This document shows positions 6,901 through 56,131 of a stretch of 64,000 nt of DNA, one piece after another. Both the position numbers and the translations under genes were made by a program. The notes under the pieces were generated by a model that saw nothing but the letters and a program-made list of their open reading frames with translations, was not told where the DNA came from and ran no database searches. Location: contig OZ244981.1 of the NCBI GenBank assembly GCA_965223085.1, positions 182,747-246,746 of the forward strand. Direction: 5' to 3'. Every line of letters begins with the position of its first letter. Position 1 is the first letter of the stretch. This DNA is from Gammaproteobacteria bacterium (GTDB lineage Bacteria > Pseudomonadota > Gammaproteobacteria > Ga0077536).

Positions 6901-8224
6901 GGTAGTGTCAGAAATTCTGTGTTTGAGCCGTTTAAAGAAATCAATCGTTTAAATTAAACCGCTCTCCGAACTGGATTGCAAACTGGGTTTTGGCATGAGA
7001 CCAGGCGATGGGTGGGTTCTTCCATTTCGCCGTGATATTTCTCAATGCCAGCCAGATCAATTTCGTTGCCGCTTCATCATTCGGGAAGTGGCCTTTATTG
7101 CGGATGCTTTTTCGCACGCCGCTGTGTAGCGATTCAATCGCATTTGTCGTGTAGATAATCTTTCGCACGGGTTTAGCGAAAGCAAAGAACGGGATGATGT
7201 GCTCCCAATGCCGTCGCCAGCTTTGTCCGACCGTCGGAAACTTTTCACCCCAATCACTTTGTTCGAATTCGCTTAGCGCCTGCTCGGCCGCTTCGACAGA
7301 ATCAGCTTGGTAAATCGGCTTGAGCGCCGACGCTAGCGCCTTACGATCTTTCCATGAGGCCAACGCGAGTGAATTGCGGATGAGATGGACGATGCAGGTC
7401 TGCACAACCGTATCGGGAAACACCGATGTGATAGCGTCGGGGAATCCTTTGAGGCCATCGACAACTGCGATGAGGATGTCGTTGAGGCCGCGGGATTTGA
7501 GTTCGTTCATCACACGGAGCCAAAATTTAGCGCCTTCAGTTTGTTCGATCCATAAGCCCAATACTTCCTTGTGGCCCGAGCAACGCATCCCGATGGCCAG
7601 ATACACCGCCTTGTTGCGGACCAGGCCTTCGTCACGGATTTTCACGCGCAACGCATCGAAGAATACCACCGCGTAGGTGGATTCCAACGGACGCGATTGC
7701 CACGCCCTCACTTCGTCGATAACTGAATCAGTCACCACCGAAACGAGATCCGGTGATATCGATACGCCATACAGTTCACCAACGTGCGATTGAATATCCC
7801 GGGTACTCATCCCTCGCGCATACAGCGCGATGATCTTTTCATCGAAGCCTGGGAATCGGCGTTGATATTTTTTGATTAACGCCGGGTCGAAGTGACCGTG
7901 ACGGTCTCGGGGAATGTCCAGAACAATCTCGCCATCGTCGCTCAACACCGTCTTCTGGCTTGAGCCATTACGGTGGTTGCCAGCTTGCTGCTCGGCTTCG
8001 CCGTCGAGGTGCGCATCCATCTCTGCGTTGAGCATTCGCTCAGCCAGGGCCTTCTTAAGGTCGCCAAGCAACCCCGCCGAACTCAACGCCGTCGCCGGGT
8101 CTTGTCCTTTGAGAAGCTCGTCTAAGATATCGGCGTCGAACGCCGGGGATTTTGCTTTTGCCATACTGCTCTCCTTCCCATAGCAGGATAGTATGGCTCA
8201 AAACACAAAATTACTGACAGTCTC
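6901..8224 (-). mobile_element. IS256-family insertion sequence (1324 bp)
   Basis: Single 407-aa IS256/mutator-type transposase. Imperfect ~26-bp terminal inverted repeats (GGTAGTGTCAGAAATTCTGTGTTTGAGCC versus the reverse complement of GGCTCAAAACACAAAATTACTGACAGTCTC). 8-bp TSD. Confidence 0.8.
6941..8164 (-). CDS. IS256-family transposase
   Basis: 407 aa with conserved IS256 regions (MSTRDI, YLAIGM, FPDTVVQTCIVHLIRNSL, TTNAIESLH). Confidence 0.88.
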   Translation of the reverse strand: MAKAKSPAFDADILDELLKGQDPATALSSAGLLGDLKKALAERMLNAEMDAHLDGEAEQQAGNHRNGSSQKTVLSDDGEIVLDIPRDRHGHFDPALIKKYQRRFPGFDEKIIALYARGMSTRDIQSHVGELYGVSISPDLVSVVTDSVIDEVRAWQSRPLESTYAVVFFDALRVKIRDEGLVRNKAVYLAIGMRCSGHKEVLGLWIEQTEGAKFWLRVMNELKSRGLNDILIAVVDGLKGFPDAITSVFPDTVVQTCIVHLIRNSLALASWKDRKALASALKPIYQADSVEAAEQALSEFEQSDWGEKFPTVGQSWRRHWEHIIPFFAFAKPVRKIIYTTNAIESLHSGVRKSIRNKGHFPNDEAATKLIWLALRNITAKWKNPPIAWSHAKTQFAIQFGERFNLND

Positions 8225-10672: not shown

Positions 10673-12235
10673 CTACGCGAATCGCCGTGCCAAACTAACT
10701 AACTCTTCAGCGGTTTTTTTCAGTGTGACGCCAGAATGATAAGTGCGTTCGGCATGATGTGTCGCTTCTTCTGAGGACTGCTTGATACGCTCGACATTGG
10801 AGCTGATTTCTTCAGAGACACTGCTTTGTTCGTCTGTGGCCGAGGCAATTTGGGTGATCATGTTTGACACGGAGTTGATCGCTAATTTTATTTGATTAAT
10901 GCTTTCTTCCACATCAGCGGATAGTTGCACGGTATTGTTCGTGATCGACTGTCCTTTTTCCATTAATCCGGCCGCATTCGTCGACGATGTACGCAAGCCC
11001 TCGATCGTTCCACGAATCGTTTCGGTCGAGATCTGTGTTTGACTCGCGAGCGTCCTGACTTCGTCTGCGACTACCGCGAAGCCACGCCCACTTTCTCCGG
11101 CTCTCGCGGCCTCTATAGCGGCGTTCAAGGCTAATAAATTGGTCTGCTCGGCGATGCCTTGAATGACGTCCACAACCGAACCTATTTGCGCGCAGCCCTT
11201 TTCCAGTTCGCCGATCGCACCCGACAGATCAGAGATCTCGTTGGATAACTGGTTGATGATGGTCGTTGATTTATGCACCAGCTCCAAACCGGCATCGGAT
11301 TGCGCTATCGCTTTTTTCGTTTCCTTGGCGGTCTCAGAGGCGTTCTTCGCAACTTCTTGCACCGTCTGAGACATTTCGTGAACGGCAACGGCCGCTTGTT
11401 CTAGCTGCGAAAATTGCGAGTCGATGGCTTGCTTCGATTGCTCAGCGATAGTCTGCGCTTGATCTGCAGCATTAGAAACACTGTCGGCCTCATGTTGAAC
11501 ACTTTGCAGCAGCGTGTTGGTTCGAAATTCCTGCATGCGAGCCACAAAAAACAAACTACCGAGTTCGTCGCGACGCCCAGTATAGACTTCCTTGCAAAGT
11601 TCGCTCACATAATCGTCACAAGCTTCGGCTTGTTTGGCAAGCGGGATGAATACAGTCCGTAACCAATAAGCCATTAGCGCGACTAATATCAGCAGCGGCA
11701 ACAATGTTGCGATGGAAGGCCCCGCCGCCAAGATTGGTGCCGCCGTGCCCACGACGGCCAACACAGAGAAAAGCCAGAACTTTTTCAATAACGTGCGCGG
11801 GAGTAAATTTTTCAACTTCTGTAGCGGGTGAGCGTCTTGAATACCGTAGAGTTTCTCCGCGCGGTCAACTAAATCACGCTCAGGCATGCGACGCACCGAT
11901 TGATGGCCGACGATTTCATCCCCTTGCTTGAGCGGGGTAACGAAGGCATCGACCCAGTAGTGATCGCCGTTCTTGCAACGGTTTTTGACCACCCCCATCC
12001 ACGGCAAGCCGCGGTTGATCGTCGACCACAAATCTGCGAAGCCAGCCTGGGGCATGTCGGGATGGCGCACGATATTGTGGGCCTGTCCGACGAGCTCTTC
12101 GCTGCTAAAACCCGCGATGGTACAGAAATAGTCGTTGGCTTCCTCGATAACACCTTTCGTCGTCGTTCGTGAAATTATCCGGCGATGTGGATCTAGCCGC
12201 ACTTCAATTTGGGTGACAGGGTAGTTTTTGCGCAT
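10673..12235 (-). CDS. Aer-like methyl-accepting chemotaxis protein (N-terminal PAS, TM hairpin, MCP signalling domain)
   Basis: N-terminal PAS (NIVRHPDMP). A hydrophobic hairpin. The canonical tip [32 protein letters not shown]. Confidence 0.85.
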
Positions 12236-20358: not shown

Positions 20359-21663
20359 ATGAGCACAGCTGACCAGAACGCTTATCACAAGATCCGGGCA
20401 CGCGCGGCAAAGCCGCCGAGCGGCTGTCCAATAAACCATGATTTTACCCCCTTTGATCACGGCTATTTACGCAACCCCTACCCACCGCTCGAGCGGCTCA
20501 GCGAGGAACAGCCGACATTCTATGCCGAACAATTAGGCTACTTAGTGATCACGCGCATGGATCACATCTTGGAAGTGTTCAAACAACCGGAGATATTTTC
20601 ATCGGAAAATGTACAAGATCCGGTTTTCCCCGTATGCAAACGTGCATCTGCCGTATTGTCCGCCGCCGACTACAACCCCGTGGCGGTAATGTCCAACCGA
20701 CAACAACCTGATCACACCCGTATCCGCAAATACACGCGTGAAGGTTTTTCCCCGCGCCGCCTGAAAATTCTCGAACCGTATATCCGTGATAAGAGCAATG
20801 ATTTGATCGATCGCATGTTGGCCGCAGGCAGCCCCGCAGAATTCGTCAGCGCCTTCGCACACCCGCTGCCAGGCCATATCATTTTCCGTTTCATCGGCTT
20901 CCCCCTGGGCGACGATGAGCAACTCACTTATTGGACCTCCAACCGCTTGGCTTTTACCTGGGGCAAGCCCTCGGACGACGAACAAGTCGAAATAGCCGAA
21001 AACATGTTGCGTTACTGGCGCTATTGCCGCGACTTTGTTGCGCAACGTAAGGCGCAGCCTGCCGACGATCTAACCTCGGAGTTACTCGCTGCTCACGCTG
21101 AGAACCCCGATGACTTAAGTTATCGCGAAGTCGAATCGGTGATCTATGGCCTGTCGTTCGCGGGGCACGAGATCGTGAGTAATTTTCTCGCCAACACGTT
21201 ATTAAACGTGCTGCCAAAGCCGGATCAGTGGGGCACGCTGCGCGATGATCCAACGCTGATCCCCAACGCGCTCGAAGAAGTTCTGCGCTGCGACTCGCCC
21301 CAGATCAGTTGGCGCCGGGTGGCGACGGCCGATACACGTGTGGGTGACATCGACATCCCGGCAGGTACGCAGATTTTTCTTAGCCTCGGCGCGGCGAATC
21401 ATGAAAGAGATATTTTCCCCAAGCCCTCGAGCTTCGATATTTACCGCGATAATGCTGGTAAGCATATTTCTTTTGGCCACGGAATTCATTTTTGCCTCGG
21501 CGCACGGCTCGCGCGCCTGGAAGGACGGATTGCTATAGAGACTCTGACGAAACGCTTGCCGAGCCTACGCTTGGTCCCGGATCAAAACTTGCACTGGTCG
21601 CCCAACATCACGTTTCGCGGCCCGGCAAAACTCGCAGTGGAATGGGATACTGCGACAGCTTAA
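20359..21663 (+). CDS. Cytochrome P450
   Basis: Heme loop FGHGIHFCLGARLA, EEVLR (ExxR). Sits 67 bp downstream of hpaI on the same strand. Confidence 0.88.
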   Translation: MSTADQNAYHKIRARAAKPPSGCPINHDFTPFDHGYLRNPYPPLERLSEEQPTFYAEQLGYLVITRMDHILEVFKQPEIFSSENVQDPVFPVCKRASAVLSAADYNPVAVMSNRQQPDHTRIRKYTREGFSPRRLKILEPYIRDKSNDLIDRMLAAGSPAEFVSAFAHPLPGHIIFRFIGFPLGDDEQLTYWTSNRLAFTWGKPSDDEQVEIAENMLRYWRYCRDFVAQRKAQPADDLTSELLAAHAENPDDLSYREVESVIYGLSFAGHEIVSNFLANTLLNVLPKPDQWGTLRDDPTLIPNALEEVLRCDSPQISWRRVATADTRVGDIDIPAGTQIFLSLGAANHERDIFPKPSSFDIYRDNAGKHISFGHGIHFCLGARLARLEGRIAIETLTKRLPSLRLVPDQNLHWSPNITFRGPAKLAVEWDTATA

Positions 21664-22496
21664 GCGGCTTTTGCGGCGCCGCTACTTTTCTCGCTCAAAC
21701 CAACCTCCAGCGCTTCGAACCAATCGAGAAAACGCCCGACATCGTCACCGCGAAACATGCGCCCATGCTGGGGTGCCATAATCTCGATATCTAGCGCACG
21801 TACGCGTGCAATCCAATCGTTCTTGGCGAGATTCGACGGCATCCAGCGTTTATGGAATAGCTCCATTTTCTGAACGTGGGCAGCAAAATCATCGACGAAC
21901 AAAGGACTGCCGTCAGGTTCTAAGGCGGCCCCGACATCTCCTGTCATCAAGATTTTGGCGACCGGATCGTAGACATGAAAATTTCCCGAGGAATGAAGGT
22001 AATGGGCCGGGACGAACTGCAATCTCACCGACGGCAGTGCGAGCTCCATGCCCTCATCAGGAATGCCGACGTACTCGATATTTTGACAACCAAAATGTCG
22101 CAGAAAACCTTCCCACAACCACGGTGCGTAGAGCTTCGCGTGCGGTATAGTTTTGTCCCACAGCCCCAACGAAGAAATAATGTCAGGGTCTTGATGCGAG
22201 GCGAACAAATATTTGAGTTCCGCGAAATCGCAGCAACTGGCTACGGCTGGCAACATAGCCGCAAATGTCTCTATACCGCCCGGATCGAGCAACACGTTCG
22301 CACCCCGGTCGCAAATCAGATACTGATTCGTATCGATAATTCGATCGAGCTTGTTGGGATCGCGGCCAAACGAGTACCAAGTATGTTGACCTCGATAAAC
22401 TTCGGTGCGCTGCACTAGGTTTCTCCTGTTTCTATTGTTCTGTTCACTGAATGCCGCGTAGCAAGGCAGCACATTTCGTGACGACATCGCGAACAT
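21660..22496 (-). CDS. Oxygen-binding diiron protein (ODP-like; FprA-type metallo-beta-lactamase-fold diiron domain only)
   Basis: FDP-like ligand pattern (SHQDPD, PAHYLH, MTGDVG, APQHG). N-terminal ...YLICDRGANVLLDPGG matches flavodiiron N-domains. No flavodoxin domain is present. Confidence 0.6.
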   Translation of the reverse strand: MFAMSSRNVLPCYAAFSEQNNRNRRNLVQRTEVYRGQHTWYSFGRDPNKLDRIIDTNQYLICDRGANVLLDPGGIETFAAMLPAVASCCDFAELKYLFASHQDPDIISSLGLWDKTIPHAKLYAPWLWEGFLRHFGCQNIEYVGIPDEGMELALPSVRLQFVPAHYLHSSGNFHVYDPVAKILMTGDVGAALEPDGSPLFVDDFAAHVQKMELFHKRWMPSNLAKNDWIARVRALDIEIMAPQHGRMFRGDDVGRFLDWFEALEVGLSEKSSGAAKAA

Positions 22497-23049
22497 GCTG
22501 CGCGGCTTGTTCTACGGTATCGGCGACGCTTTCGAGACTTGCTTGATAATTGCCTGCGACTGTCGCCTCTACCCGCGAACACGAAGCTACCATCGTGGCC
22601 GCACGCGCGTGGTCACTAATTGTGCTAAGCAATTCGATCAGTTGTGAGAGATTTTCCAAGGTGGTCTCGCGTGCAACGGAGTGCTGCTTTTGCAGCTCGT
22701 GCGCGACGTCGCTCAGATAAGGGGAGGGGGCCTCAATATCTGCCATGCCCCGCTCCATGCGCGTCACGCAATCGACGAACCGCTCCGCGGCGACCATATC
22801 GCGCACCGTGCGGCGAGCGTCTAGATTGACACGATCAACAAGTTCGGCCGTCTCACGGCCCATCGCATCGATAGAATCTGTAATCGGCACAAAACCAGCA
22901 GCCCGGTTACCCACACGGGCAGCGACCGCTTTCGCATTGCTGGCGGCCAGCGAGATATCGTTCGCTACTTGGCGCACGCCATTGAGTTCGGTCAGTACTG
23001 TCGCCGTACGGGAAAAAAAATCGTCGTGATTTCGCGAAGACCGTGTCAT
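22444..23049 (-). CDS. Soluble mini methyl-accepting chemotaxis-like protein (signalling-hairpin domain only)
   Basis: LNGVRQVANDISLAASNAKAVAARVGNRAAGF aligns to the MCP tip consensus (D)G..Q(T)N(IL)ALNAA(V)EAARAGEQGRGF. It is coiled-coil-like throughout and its 3' end overlaps the ODP start. Confidence 0.5.
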   Translation of the reverse strand: MTRSSRNHDDFFSRTATVLTELNGVRQVANDISLAASNAKAVAARVGNRAAGFVPITDSIDAMGRETAELVDRVNLDARRTVRDMVAAERFVDCVTRMERGMADIEAPSPYLSDVAHELQKQHSVARETTLENLSQLIELLSTISDHARAATMVASCSRVEATVAGNYQASLESVADTVEQAAQHVRDVVTKCAALLRGIQ

Positions 23050-23256
23050 GCGGAATAATGCATAGTCATAGACAACCTATATTGGCGGCACCAATCGCCA
23101 CGACTGTAGGGTATTTCGATGTCGGCGCTGACGCTCGCTGTTGCCTTGACTTTGTGCCACCGCGAGTTTTACGGTGGCGCACTGAACCTGGATTACATCG
23201 AGCTGCTGCGAACGGCACAGGACACTAGTAGAAGCTTCGAGTAGAACTTCGCAATC

Positions 23257-27882: not shown

Positions 27883-28590
27883 ATTTGTCTTTACGCTCAA
27901 ATAATACGGCCGCTATCTGGTCGGGGAAATACGAGTTACGAACTGCTACTCCGGTTAACAGATGGCGATGAAATCATTGCCCCCAGCATTTTTTTAGCTG
28001 CAACGGAACGATACAACTTAATGCCAAAGCTCAATCGTTGGGTCGTACACTCTGCTTTTCAGCATTTCAAGGAAAATCCTGATTTTCTTGCAGTCAATTT
28101 CCGTTCAATGAATCTATCGGGTCAGTCCGTGGTCGAACCCGAATTCTTGGATTACATGATTACCCAATTCGGTGAATTCGATATTGATCCATCGAAAATT
28201 TGTTTTGAATTAACTGAAACAGCCGCCATATCCAACTTGGGTAGGGCTATTAAGCTCATTTCCACACTGAAGGGTTTCGGTTGCTCGTTTTCTTTAGACG
28301 ATTTCGGCAGCGGTTTTTCGTCTTTTGCATATTTGAAAAACTTACCGGTCGATTATCTAAAAATAGACGGTCTATTTGTGCGCGACATATTAGAAGATCC
28401 GGTCGATTTAGCGATGGTGAAATGCATCAAAGAGATCAGCCAACTGACGGGCATGAAAACTATCGCCGAGTTCGTGGAAAACGAAGAAATCAGAGACGCG
28501 CTCAAAAGCATGGGGATTGACGATGTCCAAGGGTATGGAGTCGGCAGACCCGCACTCTCAACGCGGCTCTTGCACGATCGCGTAGCCTAG
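27883..28590 (+). CDS. EAL-domain (c-di-GMP phosphodiesterase) protein with no conventional start codon. It may be a remnant of a truncated or frameshifted gene
   Basis: The full EAL core (YELLLRL, ELTE, DDFGSG, EFVENEE) reads in frame from just after a TAA at 27880. The first in-frame ATG/GTG/TTG is the ATG at 28021, which lies inside the domain. GAGGAG sits at 27872. Confidence 0.5.
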   Translation: MCLYAQIIRPLSGRGNTSYELLLRLTDGDEIIAPSIFLAATERYNLMPKLNRWVVHSAFQHFKENPDFLAVNFRSMNLSGQSVVEPEFLDYMITQFGEFDIDPSKICFELTETAAISNLGRAIKLISTLKGFGCSFSLDDFGSGFSSFAYLKNLPVDYLKIDGLFVRDILEDPVDLAMVKCIKEISQLTGMKTIAEFVENEEIRDALKSMGIDDVQGYGVGRPALSTRLLHDRVA

Positions 28591-28940: not shown

Positions 28941-30146
28941 TTACCACCGAACAGGCATCGCATAGATGCCATAGATCTGACTATCGTCTTTGAATCGTAT
29001 CTCGATCACCGGCACGGCGAGTTCAAGCGTCGGGATGCGCTGGAACAAAGCAGGAAAAACGGTGCGCAGTTCGAAACGGGCGAGCATTTGACCGAGACAT
29101 TGGTGAATACCATAACCAAATGCGCAGTGATTGCCCGCATTGCGCCGGACGTCGAAGCGATCGGGATCCTGAAACATCGTCGGATCGCGATTAGCAGCCG
29201 GTGTAAGTCCGAACACGCCCTCTCCTTTTTTGATCACGATCCCGTCGATCTCCACATCTTCGAGTGCCACCCGTCGCGGTGCAAATTGAACGGGGCTTAA
29301 ATAGCGCAGCAATTCTTCGACAGCAGCGTCGATCAGGGACCAGTCGTGGCGCAATGCGGTGAGTTGAGCAGGCGTTTGCAATAACAGCAAGGTGCCGAGC
29401 GCAATCATATTCGCGGTCGTATCGTGACCCGCGCGCAGCAACATAGCGCCGATGTGCGCGAATTCCTCCACCGAGAGCTTGCCGGGTTTGACGTATTCAT
29501 CGACGATCCGAGAGATCATATCGTTACCGGGTCGCCGTATTTTTTTTGCGATGAGTTGGGCCGCGTATTCGACCAGGGCTTGCGCACTAGTGCGGGCTTG
29601 CTCGGGCGTTTGCGAAAGGCCGTGTCGTCCGGCGGCACAAGCCATAATGAACTCGTGATCCTCGTAAGGAGAACCGAATAGATCGCACATCACCAATGCG
29701 GGAAACTTTTGCGCGAGAGCCGTGATGAAATCGACGGGAGGTGAACATGACAACATGTCGTCGATAAGCTCGTTTGTGATTTGCTCAATGCGCGGCTTTA
29801 ACGCCAACATGCGTTTAACCGTGAATTCACCGCTTAACATGCGTCGGTAATGATCATGTTGCGGATTATCCATGCCGACGAAGGCTCTCTCCTGCTTATC
29901 TATAGCAACGCGAGCCTCCGTCACCGCTGGAAAATCAGCGCGACCGAACTCGCCACTAAAGCGAGGATCGAGCACAACTGCCCGCAGGTGGCCATAGCGG
30001 GTCAACAAGTACGCACGCCGACCGTCCCACAACGTAACCGGGAAAATCGGTCGTGATTCGCGCGCTCGTGCGTACAACAACGGTGGATCGAAAGCGCGCT
30101 CCCGCTTAAACGGGAACTGCGGGGCATCGGGTAGAGATTTACTCAT
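28941..30146 (-). CDS. Cytochrome P450
   Basis: FGYGIHQCLGQMLARFE heme loop; EELLRY. Confidence 0.88.
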   Translation of the reverse strand: MSKSLPDAPQFPFKRERAFDPPLLYARARESRPIFPVTLWDGRRAYLLTRYGHLRAVVLDPRFSGEFGRADFPAVTEARVAIDKQERAFVGMDNPQHDHYRRMLSGEFTVKRMLALKPRIEQITNELIDDMLSCSPPVDFITALAQKFPALVMCDLFGSPYEDHEFIMACAAGRHGLSQTPEQARTSAQALVEYAAQLIAKKIRRPGNDMISRIVDEYVKPGKLSVEEFAHIGAMLLRAGHDTTANMIALGTLLLLQTPAQLTALRHDWSLIDAAVEELLRYLSPVQFAPRRVALEDVEIDGIVIKKGEGVFGLTPAANRDPTMFQDPDRFDVRRNAGNHCAFGYGIHQCLGQMLARFELRTVFPALFQRIPTLELAVPVIEIRFKDDSQIYGIYAMPVRW

Positions 30147-46721: not shown

Positions 46722-47888
46722 ATGAACCACCCTGCTGTACTCAATCTAGGCTTTCGTCCGTTTTTCAGCGGCGCCGGCGTGTTTGCACTGCTTAGCATCG
46801 GGTATTGGCTGCATATTTTTGCGCAACCCGATGCCCTATTGTTGCAACGAATGAACCCGTCTCAATGGCACGCTCACGAAATGCTGTATGGCTATAGCTT
46901 GGCGGTAATCGCGGGGTTTTTGCTAACCGCGGTAAAAAACTGGACCAGTATGCAAACCCCCCATGGTCCGCCGCTGCTCGGCTTGTTTTCCCTGTGGCTC
47001 AGCGCTCGTTTGTGCTGGTTCATGGGCGAGTCGGTATTAGTCGTCGCAGCGCTGTTCGACCTGGCATTTATGCTATTGCTCATTGTGAGCATTGCACGAC
47101 CGATAATCAAAACCAAACAATGGCGCCAAACCGCAGTGTTATCGAAACTTGTTTTATTGGGCGGCGCCAACGTTGCTTTCTACCTTGGGGCATTCGGGCA
47201 ACTCGAGCAAGGTGCGCATCTCAGTATTTATGGTGGTCTGTATTTGATCATCGGGTTGATATTGACCATGGGCAGGCGCGTTATTCCGATGTTCATCGAA
47301 GGCGGCGTCGATTATCCGGTCAAATTATATAATTCGCGCTGGCTCGACATTTCGAGCATGGTGCTTTTTCTGTTATTTTTCATTTCAACACTGTTTTTGT
47401 CACAACCTCGGTATGCCAGCTCGCTTGCTGCCGCGCTATTCGTGATTACCTCCACGCGACTCGTGGGCTGGTATACACCCGGAATTTGGCGCACACCGCT
47501 GCTGTGGGGTTTGTTTCTCGCCATCGTCTTCATCGATCTCGGGTTCTTGCTCTTCGCGTTGCGGACCTGGCTGGAAACCTCTCCATATTTAGCAACACAC
47601 GCATTTGCCATGGGCGGCATTGGCACAATTACGATGGCAATGATGGCGCGTGTTTCCATCGGACATACCGGGCGCAACTTGAAGCTGCCCCCGACGCAAT
47701 TGAATTGGGCGCTAATTCTAATTCTCATCGCTGTCGTGATTCGGGTACTGGTACCGACGGTGATTGCAAGCAACTATTCTCTGTGGGTCTTGCTCTCCGG
47801 AGGGTTTTGGCTGCTTAGCTTCACGCTGTTTTGTTGGGGTTTCTTACCGATTTTGAGCAGACCACGCATCGACCAGAAATACGGTTAA
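46722..47888 (+). CDS. nnrS: NnrS-family membrane protein (NO-response heme-copper membrane protein)
   Basis: 388 aa, ~12 TM, NnrS-like N-terminus (GFRPFFSGAG...). Confidence 0.65.
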   Translation: MNHPAVLNLGFRPFFSGAGVFALLSIGYWLHIFAQPDALLLQRMNPSQWHAHEMLYGYSLAVIAGFLLTAVKNWTSMQTPHGPPLLGLFSLWLSARLCWFMGESVLVVAALFDLAFMLLLIVSIARPIIKTKQWRQTAVLSKLVLLGGANVAFYLGAFGQLEQGAHLSIYGGLYLIIGLILTMGRRVIPMFIEGGVDYPVKLYNSRWLDISSMVLFLLFFISTLFLSQPRYASSLAAALFVITSTRLVGWYTPGIWRTPLLWGLFLAIVFIDLGFLLFALRTWLETSPYLATHAFAMGGIGTITMAMMARVSIGHTGRNLKLPPTQLNWALILILIAVVIRVLVPTVIASNYSLWVLLSGGFWLLSFTLFCWGFLPILSRPRIDQKYG

Positions 47889-54829: not shown

Positions 54830-56131
54830 ATGATGTCTCACTCTGTTGACGAAATCGACATCCATTCGCCGCAGCTATATGCGGAGCAGGGTTATCCCTG
54901 GGCCGCTTGGGACTTATTGCGTCGCGACGCGCCGGTCTACTGGTATGAACGCAACGACATCGAACCATTTTGGGCGGTGACGCGTTATGCCGATGTGATG
55001 GCGATTTCAGATCACCCGCGAGTTTTCATCAACGGTGGTCCACGATTGCGGCTGGCGCTAAAGGGGGAACCGGAGTTATTGCGTGGCGGGCTTGATGAAT
55101 TTGGCGAATCACGAGGCTGGGATCCCCAGGAGCCACCCGATATTACGTTCATGGATGATCCCCGTCATCGCAAATTCCGCAAACTGTCGAGTTGGGCATT
55201 CACCCAAGGTTGCATGCGGGAGATGGCGACGCATCTAGACGAACTCGCCGAGCGCTTTACCGATGAATTCGTCGCGCGATTGGAGGCGGCTACTTCGACG
55301 ACAGCGGTATGTGATGTAGTACAGGAATTGGCAGCTAAATTGCCACTCGCTGCGATTGGAGAGATCCTTGAATTACCGCCCGATGATTGGAAAAAGTTAT
55401 TAATCTGGTCGAACGCAATCATCGGCGAAGTCGAACCGCTGCACGTCCACGCGGGCGAGACTGTAGCGCAGGCAGCAGCACGTAACATGTACGAGTTTCG
55501 CCTCTACTTAGAAGCGTTGATTCATCAACATCGGAGGCCAGGTGGCGGGCCCTCCGGCTTTGTCAACCGTCTTCTCTGCGCTACCGTCGACGGCCAGACA
55601 TTGAACGATCAGCAAGCGATCGGTTATCTGTTTTTGTTAATCGGCGCGGGTAATGACACGACCCGAAATGCAACCACCGGTGGCATCGTCGCTTTGTTAG
55701 AACATCCACAGCAACGCGATCTCCTGTGCGCCGAACCTGCACTGCTCGGACAAGCCAGCGCCGAAATATTTCGTTGGACTTCCCCCGTTATTAGTTTTTT
55801 GCGCACCGCCACCGAAGATTATGTATTGAACGGCACGACGATACGTAAAAACGATACCGTGTGTATGTTCTATCCCTCCGCGAATCGCGATGAACGTGTC
55901 TTCGATGCGCCCTACCGCTTCGACATACGCCGTGACCCAAACCCCTACATCACTTTCGGCTACGGCGCACACTTTTGTCTCGGCACTAATCTCGCGCGCG
56001 CCGAGCTCGGCGCCGCGCTAAAGGCGTTGTTACCGGTACTGCCGCACCTCGAAGTCGCCGGAAGTGGGCGCCGTATCGCCAATACGCATGTCTCGGGATA
56101 CGCCTACATGCCGGTGCGGCTCGCGGCATAA
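54830..56131 (+). CDS. Cytochrome P450
   Basis: FGYGAHFCLGTNLARAE heme loop. Confidence 0.88.
   Translation: MMSHSVDEIDIHSPQLYAEQGYPWAAWDLLRRDAPVYWYERNDIEPFWAVTRYADVMAISDHPRVFINGGPRLRLALKGEPELLRGGLDEFGESRGWDPQEPPDITFMDDPRHRKFRKLSSWAFTQGCMREMATHLDELAERFTDEFVARLEAATSTTAVCDVVQELAAKLPLAAIGEILELPPDDWKKLLIWSNAIIGEVEPLHVHAGETVAQAAARNMYEFRLYLEALIHQHRRPGGGPSGFVNRLLCATVDGQTLNDQQAIGYLFLLIGAGNDTTRNATTGGIVALLEHPQQRDLLCAEPALLGQASAEIFRWTSPVISFLRTATEDYVLNGTTIRKNDTVCMFYPSANRDERVFDAPYRFDIRRDPNPYITFGYGAHFCLGTNLARAELGAALKALLPVLPHLEVAGSGRRIANTHVSGYAYMPVRLAA

Follow-up and report, generated by a model that had tools for sequence, protein, structure and literature searches.

The window analysed here, i.e. the whole 64,000-nucleotide (64-kb) stretch of contig OZ244981.1 (positions 182,747 to 246,746) from a Gammaproteobacteria bacterium of the Ga0077536 lineage, contains two adjacent minus-strand genes that encode an oxygen-binding di-iron protein (ODP) and a protein of 201 residues, the mini-receptor. 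The latter is, judging from profile searches and structure prediction, derived from methyl-accepting chemotaxis proteins (MCPs) and made of two short tip hairpins in tandem, not of one hairpin. The reading that we favour, with a probability of roughly 0.6, is that the two genes form an operon in which the mini-receptor is a single-chain, tandem-tip module that relays the Fe(II)/O2 state of the ODP to the control of CheA. We see the mini-receptor as a CheA-relaying tip module because there are precedents both for soluble MCPs acting on CheA and for engineered single-chain receptor fragments, and by analogy with these systems an O2/Fe(II) input to CheA would be its likeliest function.

A chemoreceptor tip present twice in one small protein

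The best Protein Data Bank (PDB) match of the 201-residue sequence is the tip of TM14, the receptor that partners the Thermotoga ODP, and it covers residues 22-85 only, which places the tip motif near the N-terminus instead of mid-chain. A first, sequence-only reading of this DNA had described the protein as made only of an MCP signalling hairpin. The tip string that it quoted is correct (residues 34-53), but its position near the N-terminus does not fit one symmetric hairpin, and that description gives way to two shorter tip hairpins. A word-indexed search returned 12 relatives, while an exhaustive HMMER profile search returned 296 clusters (at 50% identity) with E<=1e-3, 173 of them with E<=1e-10, nearly all 195-220 aa long and aligned over their full length. 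Among PDB MCPs, the profile of this family leads to TM14 only, via two separate stretches that both fall on the same TM14 tip.

Each half of the protein also finds this tip independently. The N-half profile alone matches the TM14 tip (E 2.5e-6), all eight of its matches being MCPs, and the deep C-half profile (57 sequences) matches TM14 (E 1.1e-7), TM1143 (5e-5) and PcaY (7e-5), with only MCPs among its top eight PDB matches and with Tsr and Aer lower in the match list. An earlier, shallow C-half profile, which put a de novo coiled coil above TM14, is superseded by the deep one. Aligned with each other by hhalign, the N-half and C-half of the 57-sequence alignment match over 56 columns with their tips in register (P 2.1e-4). 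The halves do not match significantly by BLASTP, nor by hhalign with 12 close sequences; it took the 57-sequence alignment, and TM14 as a go-between, to reveal the duplication. The Pfam family MCPsignal (PF00015) is matched by 33 of the 57 members at E<=0.01 (best E 1.7e-8) and is the only family to recur; most of these matches stay under the Pfam cut-off, which only a minority of members approach. The best explanation is that the mini-receptor arose by tandem duplication of a chemoreceptor tip hairpin of ~100 residues, in a family that chemoreceptor censuses based on Pfam thresholds miss. Its features, all on the minus strand, are the following.

22444..23049, minus strand: gene for the 201-aa tandem-tip mini-receptor (putative single-chain pseudo-dimer of MCP tips), stop codon included; from the map of open reading frames (ORFs), profile search and AlphaFold2 (AF2)
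22735..23049, minus strand: N-terminal hairpin, residues 1-105 (helix 1, tip 1, helix 2)
22891..22938, minus strand: tip motif 1, NAKAVAARVGNRAAGF, residues 38-53; equivalents of Tsr N381, A382, R388, G390, G395 and F396 kept; translation verified
22723..22740, minus strand: inter-hairpin linker DIEAPS, residues 104-109, non-helical, joining helix 2 to helix 3; coil in both AF2 models
22447..22734, minus strand: C-terminal hairpin, residues 106-201 (helix 3, tip 2, helix 4); from the deep C-half profile and hhalign
22534..22581, minus strand: tip motif 2, CSRVEATVAGNYQASL, residues 157-172; equivalents of Tsr E385 and A386 kept, Leu at the F396 position; translation verified

AF2 predicts a single-chain four-helix bundle ~75 A long that runs up-down-up-down, so that one end carries both tip turns (51-52 and 163-165). 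Two models, built from 12 sequences (predicted local distance difference test, pLDDT, 84.9) and from 57 sequences (pLDDT 93.9, predicted template modelling score, pTM, 0.86), agree on the four helices, which are 5-50, 53-103, 110-162 and 166-200. These helices of ~35-53 residues correspond to ~7 heptads per arm and ~14 per hairpin, and the linker between the hairpins is followed in close relatives by a conserved P-S-x-Y-L. The protein is cytoplasmic and has neither a sensor nor a transmembrane region. In the models its helices stop ~50 residues from the tips, leaving no room for methylation helices, and the C-terminal pentapeptide is absent from a sequence that ends in ...LLRGIQ, both points having been read from model and sequence and not from a formal motif scan. 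When the model was compared with the PDB by Foldseek, only designed four-helix bundles were returned, with no natural match at E<1e-3. Together, fold and tip matches suggest that the mini-receptor is a covalent, tandem-tip pseudo-dimer of the receptor protein-interaction region.

The two tips, which were mapped to Tsr numbering via the Aer-like MCP encoded in the same window and scored over 57 family members, have not been conserved alike. Tip 1 is nearly invariant at N38 and A39 (57/57 each), R45 (54/57), G47 (56/57), G52 (52/57) and F53 (56/57). Tip 2 is best conserved at E161 (57/57), A162 (54/57) and L172 (47/57, with F in nine members) and much less so at G166 (24/57) and E/D167 (35/57); it keeps the V-A-D that follows the F396 position and, in part, R388, G390 and E391. 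Read from these alignments, the two pseudo-subunits have diverged complementarily, the retention of canonical residues having been split between the tips after duplication.

The partner is an ODP

The downstream protein is, on its profile and ligand matches, a genuine ODP-family di-iron protein and not a plain hydrolase. It matches the Pfam family of oxygen-binding di-iron proteins (PF19583) over the entire profile (1-194 of 194; E 1.3e-73, 247.5 bits for a cut-off of 27.2), and homology search finds the crystallised ODPs at E 3.5e-63 (6qrq/6qwo, 6qrq being of Thermotoga type) and 6.3e-55 (6qnm/6r9n, 6qnm being of Treponema type), while flavodiiron proteins score only 1e-7 to 1e-5. NCBIfam is uninformative apart from NF008887 (E 8e-4). 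Pfam detects ODP and Lactamase_B only, with no flavodoxin or rubredoxin module, i.e. a stand-alone metallo-beta-lactamase (MBL) domain. The di-iron ligands, in the numbering of the 251-aa protein, are H74-x-D76-x-D78, H141, D160 and Q216-H217, which are the same in both crystallised ODPs, invariant in seven ODPs of the clade and aligned to the ligands of flavodiiron proteins. The sequence-only reading had proposed an ODP-like di-iron protein with the pattern H-x-D-x-D...H...D...H and no flavodoxin domain, all of which stands, with Q216 to be added; a role as ligand has been stated for this Gln in the Thermotoga maritima ODP (PMC7785958). By homology with the crystallised ODPs, we infer that the site would bind Fe(II) and O2. 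The ligand motifs map as follows.

22182..22196, minus strand: metal-ligand motif 2, H74-Q-D76-P-D78; invariant in seven clade ODPs, aligned with H-x-E-x-D of flavodiiron protein 4dik
21993..22004, minus strand: H138-Y-L-H141, with H141 aligned to the flavodiiron motif-3 histidine; alignments, invariant in the clade
21936..21938, minus strand: D160, the bridging aspartate (motif 4); alignments and clade conservation
21765..21770, minus strand: Q216-H217 (motif 5) within an invariant APQHG, the Gln being ODP-specific and replacing the third His of motif 2; alignments and PMC7785958

Gene structure and pairing

The ORF map shows two minus-strand ORFs in tandem, 22444..23049 (201 aa) and 21660..22496 (278 aa if the longest frame is taken), as the sequence-only reading had placed them. 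The length of the second ORF and its 53-nt overlap with the mini-receptor gene have turned out to be artefacts of that choice. The GTG at 22415, which is in frame and has an AGGAG (22423..22427) 7 nt upstream, gives an ODP of 251 aa, six out of six aligned clade homologues (243-255 aa) start at this position, and the exact 251-aa product is present in the public protein collection, from which the 278-aa version is absent. Because the true ODP start is this GTG, the genes do not overlap but are separated by 28 nt: the mini-receptor stop (TGA, 22444..22446) is followed by a 28-nt spacer in which the ODP gene has its own Shine-Dalgarno sequence, and the translational coupling by overlap that had been proposed no longer holds. 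The two genes are adjacent and probably co-transcribed as a two-gene operon; in related loci the gap between them is 5-37 nt, one locus having an annotated 14-nt overlap.

21660..22415, minus strand: ODP gene, 251 aa, GTG start, stop codon included; from Pfam, PDB matches, the public product and homologue N-termini
22423..22427, minus strand: Shine-Dalgarno sequence AGGAG of the ODP gene, read from the sequence
23050..23256, no strand assigned: intergenic region shared with a divergent GATase gene, presumed promoter region of the operon; from the ORF map

Searches of 23050..23256 turned up neither a sigma-70 consensus nor a terminator nor an FNR-like box. The whole window has 39 FNR/CRP-like sites (TTGAT-N4-ATCAA with <=2 mismatches; 23 +/- 4 in shuffled sequences, with a maximum of 33), none of which falls within this region. 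At the other end of the pair, a cytochrome P450 gene (20359..21663, plus strand) converges on the ODP gene, and the stop codons of the two overlap in a palindrome, GCTTAAGC (window 21655..21668). There is no terminator-like hairpin between these convergent genes, and no intrinsic terminator can be assigned to the operon.

The pairing itself is a stable property of the family. In each of the 19 family loci examined, which span ~11 lineages, the mini-receptor gene lies directly upstream of an ODP gene, which bears out the earlier idea that the ODP is paired with an MCP-derived, soluble and sensor-less protein. This order holds down to 23-35% mini-receptor identity, in Thiotrichales and in unnamed metagenome-assembled genomes. 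The flanks are unrelated from locus to locus, and no third conserved gene accompanies the pair. Across the same loci the ODP is the better conserved partner (60-80% identity vs 24-63% for the mini-receptor). A local census of 76 loci by hidden Markov model (HMM) separates 19 loci with a mini-receptor (~202 aa) followed by an ODP that scores ~500 bits against the HMM of the clade, from ~45 loci of Thermotoga/Treponema type in which an ODP of 205-265 bits is followed by an MCP of ~283-290 aa. One further locus (L068, 93..884) encodes an intermediate ODP, with 305 bits against the HMM of the window clade and no MCP-like ORF downstream; only 92 nt are available upstream.

The mini-receptor family is found in Gamma- and Alphaproteobacteria, and the nearest relatives of the gene in our window come from uncultured Gammaproteobacteria. 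Cultured carriers are Shewanella algae (e.g. WP_264920064), S. indica, S. chilikensis, S. carassii and Litoribrevibacter albus, in which the protein is labelled "chemotaxis protein" by NCBI (an annotation only), while "hypothetical protein" is the label of other members.

How the pair might work, and what else it might be

The mechanism that we envisage would comprise the following steps: (i) the ODP would dock on the mini-receptor, (ii) its metal/O2 state would alter the way the bundle engages CheA/CheW, or mixed trimers in arrays of full-length receptors, (iii) kinase output would be biased, resulting in O2/Fe(II) taxis, and (iv) adaptation would be left to neighbouring methylatable receptors. 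A candidate array partner is the Aer-like protein encoded at 10673..12235, rightly picked out in the sequence-only reading, which is a canonical PAS-MCP of this host and scores 143 bits on MCPsignal. Going one step further, the 201-residue protein could be the smallest chemoreceptor module in nature as well as the first natural one to consist of a single chain, an asymmetric pseudo-dimer of ~14-heptad hairpins in which the halves have separate roles and the orientation in arrays is fixed. We hold this extension tentatively, at somewhat less than even odds. The ODP might, for example, dock on one face while contacts with CheA/CheW or within trimers are made through the other, and, if true, a fixed orientation would break symmetry within arrays in a manner that is beyond the reach of homodimeric receptors.

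Several points weigh against the favoured reading. None of cheA, cheW, cheY, cheR and cheB is present in the 64-kb window, and no che gene lies beside any family member in the loci examined. On PF00015 the protein scores 19.7 bits, under the gathering cut-off of 34.6; the tip homology of both halves (E 2.5e-6 and 1.1e-7) stands. It has also been noted that coiled-coil proteins may match MCPsignal convergently (PMC3695513), an objection that is answered here because the matches fall on the specific tip signature and not on generic heptads. Tip 1 has lost the acidic equivalents of E385, E391 and E402 as well as R404 (E385 being replaced by a hydrophobic residue and E402 by Phe), and tip 2 has lost the equivalents of N381 and G395; given these losses, canonical trimer or CheW contacts may not be preserved. 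Finally, the fold is predicted for a monomer, and a domain-swapped oligomer is possible, while metal and O2 binding by this particular ODP is deduced from ligand identity only.

The strongest alternative, which we consider unlikely but far from negligible, is that the mini-receptor is MCP-derived and works outside chemotaxis, either as an adaptor or regulator dedicated to the ODP or as a soluble decoy, and that it passes the O2/Fe signal to another output or simply controls the ODP state. The lack of che genes near any locus examined, the strong divergence of the protein (19.7 bits vs 143 bits for the Aer-like MCP of the same window), the loss of several canonical tip residues and the occurrence of ODPs with, or fused to, other signal-transduction genes (PMC7319448) speak for it. 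However, N38, R45, G47, G52, F53 and E161 are near-invariant in a family with ~25% identity, which is hard to explain if array contacts are irrelevant, there is no third conserved gene that could provide an alternative output, and the cultured members go by the name "chemotaxis protein", for what an annotation is worth.

We find it improbable that the ODP-like protein is instead an enzyme, whether a di-iron oxidoreductase that scavenges O2/NO or a hydrolase of the MBL type, which would serve the nearby catabolic genes and have the helical protein as its scaffold or chaperone. The neighbourhood (which includes P450, LigB dioxygenase, GMC oxidoreductase and luciferase-like monooxygenase genes), the oxygenase-rich flanks of some homologous loci and the distant flavodiiron similarity (including that to NF008887) are in keeping with such a role, but the flavodoxin or rubredoxin that would supply electrons is found neither as a domain nor as a neighbouring gene, the ligand set with Gln216 is specific to ODPs, and the flanks vary across loci where the mini-receptor is always present. 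Least probable is an ordinary soluble MCP, with one long homodimerising hairpin like TM14 or TDE2496 and a gene coupled by overlap to that of the ODP, since, despite a length close to that of the crystallised TM14 fragment (213 aa) and TM14 being the best PDB match, the tip sits at residues 38-53 and not mid-chain, a second tip-like motif follows at 157-172, each half matches an MCP tip independently, the AF2 helices break at 51-52, 104-109 and 163-165 (pLDDT 94), true ODP-partner hairpins are 276-291 aa long and have their tip in the centre, and once the GTG is taken as the start no overlap is left.

Surroundings in the window

The window is an oxygenase-rich catabolic region, and two homologous mini-receptor/ODP loci (L001 and L005) also lie among oxygenase genes. 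It contains three cytochrome P450 genes in 64 kb, which are the one that converges on the ODP gene and those at 28941..30146 (minus strand) and 54830..56131 (plus strand), with genes for a LigB extradiol dioxygenase, an HpcH aldolase, an FAA hydrolase, an aldehyde dehydrogenase, a GMC oxidoreductase, a luciferase-like monooxygenase and a PQQ dehydrogenase as their neighbours. A further gas/redox-related gene encodes an NnrS-family protein (46722..47888, plus strand; E 5e-103), a haem/copper membrane protein linked to nitric oxide stress. A Mutator-family transposase gene (6941..8164, minus strand; PF00872, E 5e-127) lies ~2.5 kb from the gene for the Aer-like receptor. The 189-aa ORF at 28021..28590 (plus strand) matches only positions 60-236 of the 236 in the EAL profile (E 9e-44) and may be an N-terminally truncated or mis-started phosphodiesterase for cyclic di-GMP (c-di-GMP). 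Elsewhere, in Thermodesulfovibrio sp. (CP144373.1; locus L021, 5692..7362), a PAS-GGDEF-EAL gene directly follows a canonical ODP-MCP pair, an arrangement that may point to a connection of ODP systems with c-di-GMP signalling in certain lineages.

Comparison with known systems

Work on ODP-based O2/Fe(II) sensing has so far been confined to two organisms, a hyperthermophile and an anaerobic spirochaete, each with a conventional hairpin as the ODP partner. There the ODP acts via a sensor-less soluble MCP, which modulates CheA and is likely to insert into membrane arrays (PMC7666581, PMC6978683). The systems of Thermotoga maritima (ODP/TM14) and Treponema denticola (TDE2498/TDE2496) share with the window a di-iron ODP (~250 aa) that stands alone and has an identical ligand set, and whose gene adjoins that of a cytoplasmic, MCP-derived protein without sensor or transmembrane region, and they do not require adjacent che genes either. 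The sequence-only reading had seen the architecture of the window pair as mirroring these systems, which goes too far. In the Thermotoga/Treponema type the ODP gene comes first and the receptor, 276-291 aa long, is a single hairpin that has its tip in the centre and matches MCPsignal strongly, whereas in the window the order is reversed and the partner is a protein of ~200 aa with two tandem tips. The TM14 orthologue next to the ODP gene of Thermotoga sp. KOL6 has 276 aa, a tip at about residue 143 and a match to Tsr at 1e-16, its Treponema-type counterpart has 284 aa and a central tip, and the Thermodesulfovibrio ODP neighbour is an MCPsignal protein of 291 aa. The ODPs of the window type also form a separate clade (~500 vs 205-265 bits to the clade HMM), and a sizeable one, with at least 296 clusters at 50% identity in which the receptor is reduced to two fused tips.

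According to PMC7319448, Muok et al. (2019) found ODP operons with MCP genes in two orders, and ODP genes are also reported to share operons, or to be fused, with other genes of signal transduction. The window type is probably the second, "MCP-ODP order" group of that paper, for which no experimental study came to light as far as these sources go. The searchable literature, Muok et al. (2019) apart, yielded no account of a chemoreceptor that is naturally single-chain or built of tandem tips.

Compared with flavodiiron proteins (FprA/ROO; 1vme, 4dik), the window ODP has the same MBL-fold di-iron domain, with the ligands H, D/E, D, H, D, H aligned, but no flavodoxin domain, an Asp in place of the motif-2 Glu and Gln216 in place of the third motif-2 His; by analogy it would be a sensor, a reductase function being the flavodiiron role. 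Canonical MCP signalling domains, which come in twelve heptad classes from 24H to 64H (MiST3, PMC6943060), share with the window tips the N-x6-R-x-G...G-F and E-A-x-x-A-G signatures. Each of these classes consists of a single hairpin, 24 heptads long or more, that homodimerises into a four-helix bundle, in contrast to the window protein with its hairpins of ~14 heptads, its lack of methylation helices and the intramolecular bundle predicted by AF2.

The nearest parallel is artificial. Engineered single-chain "dimeric" fragments of the Tm14 and Tar tips bind CheA/CheW and regulate the kinase (bioRxiv 10.1101/2020.03.27.011866), and these Crane-laboratory constructs resemble the window protein in that two tip hairpins are covalently joined into a pseudo-dimeric four-helix bundle that consists of the protein-interaction region only. 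They differ in having identical 71-residue repeats and in needing a foldon to trimerise, while the window protein is natural, with hairpins of ~100 residues that have diverged asymmetrically. An ODP with a soluble MCP is a known system; the tandem-tip architecture and the gene order make this one distinct and, as far as we could find, uncharacterised. If it is coupled to CheA, the mini-receptor would (i) define the minimal signalling unit of a chemoreceptor, (ii) give the engineered single-chain receptors on which structural work relies a counterpart from nature and (iii) offer an asymmetric probe for the receptor faces that touch CheA, CheW, neighbouring dimers and an accessory sensor.

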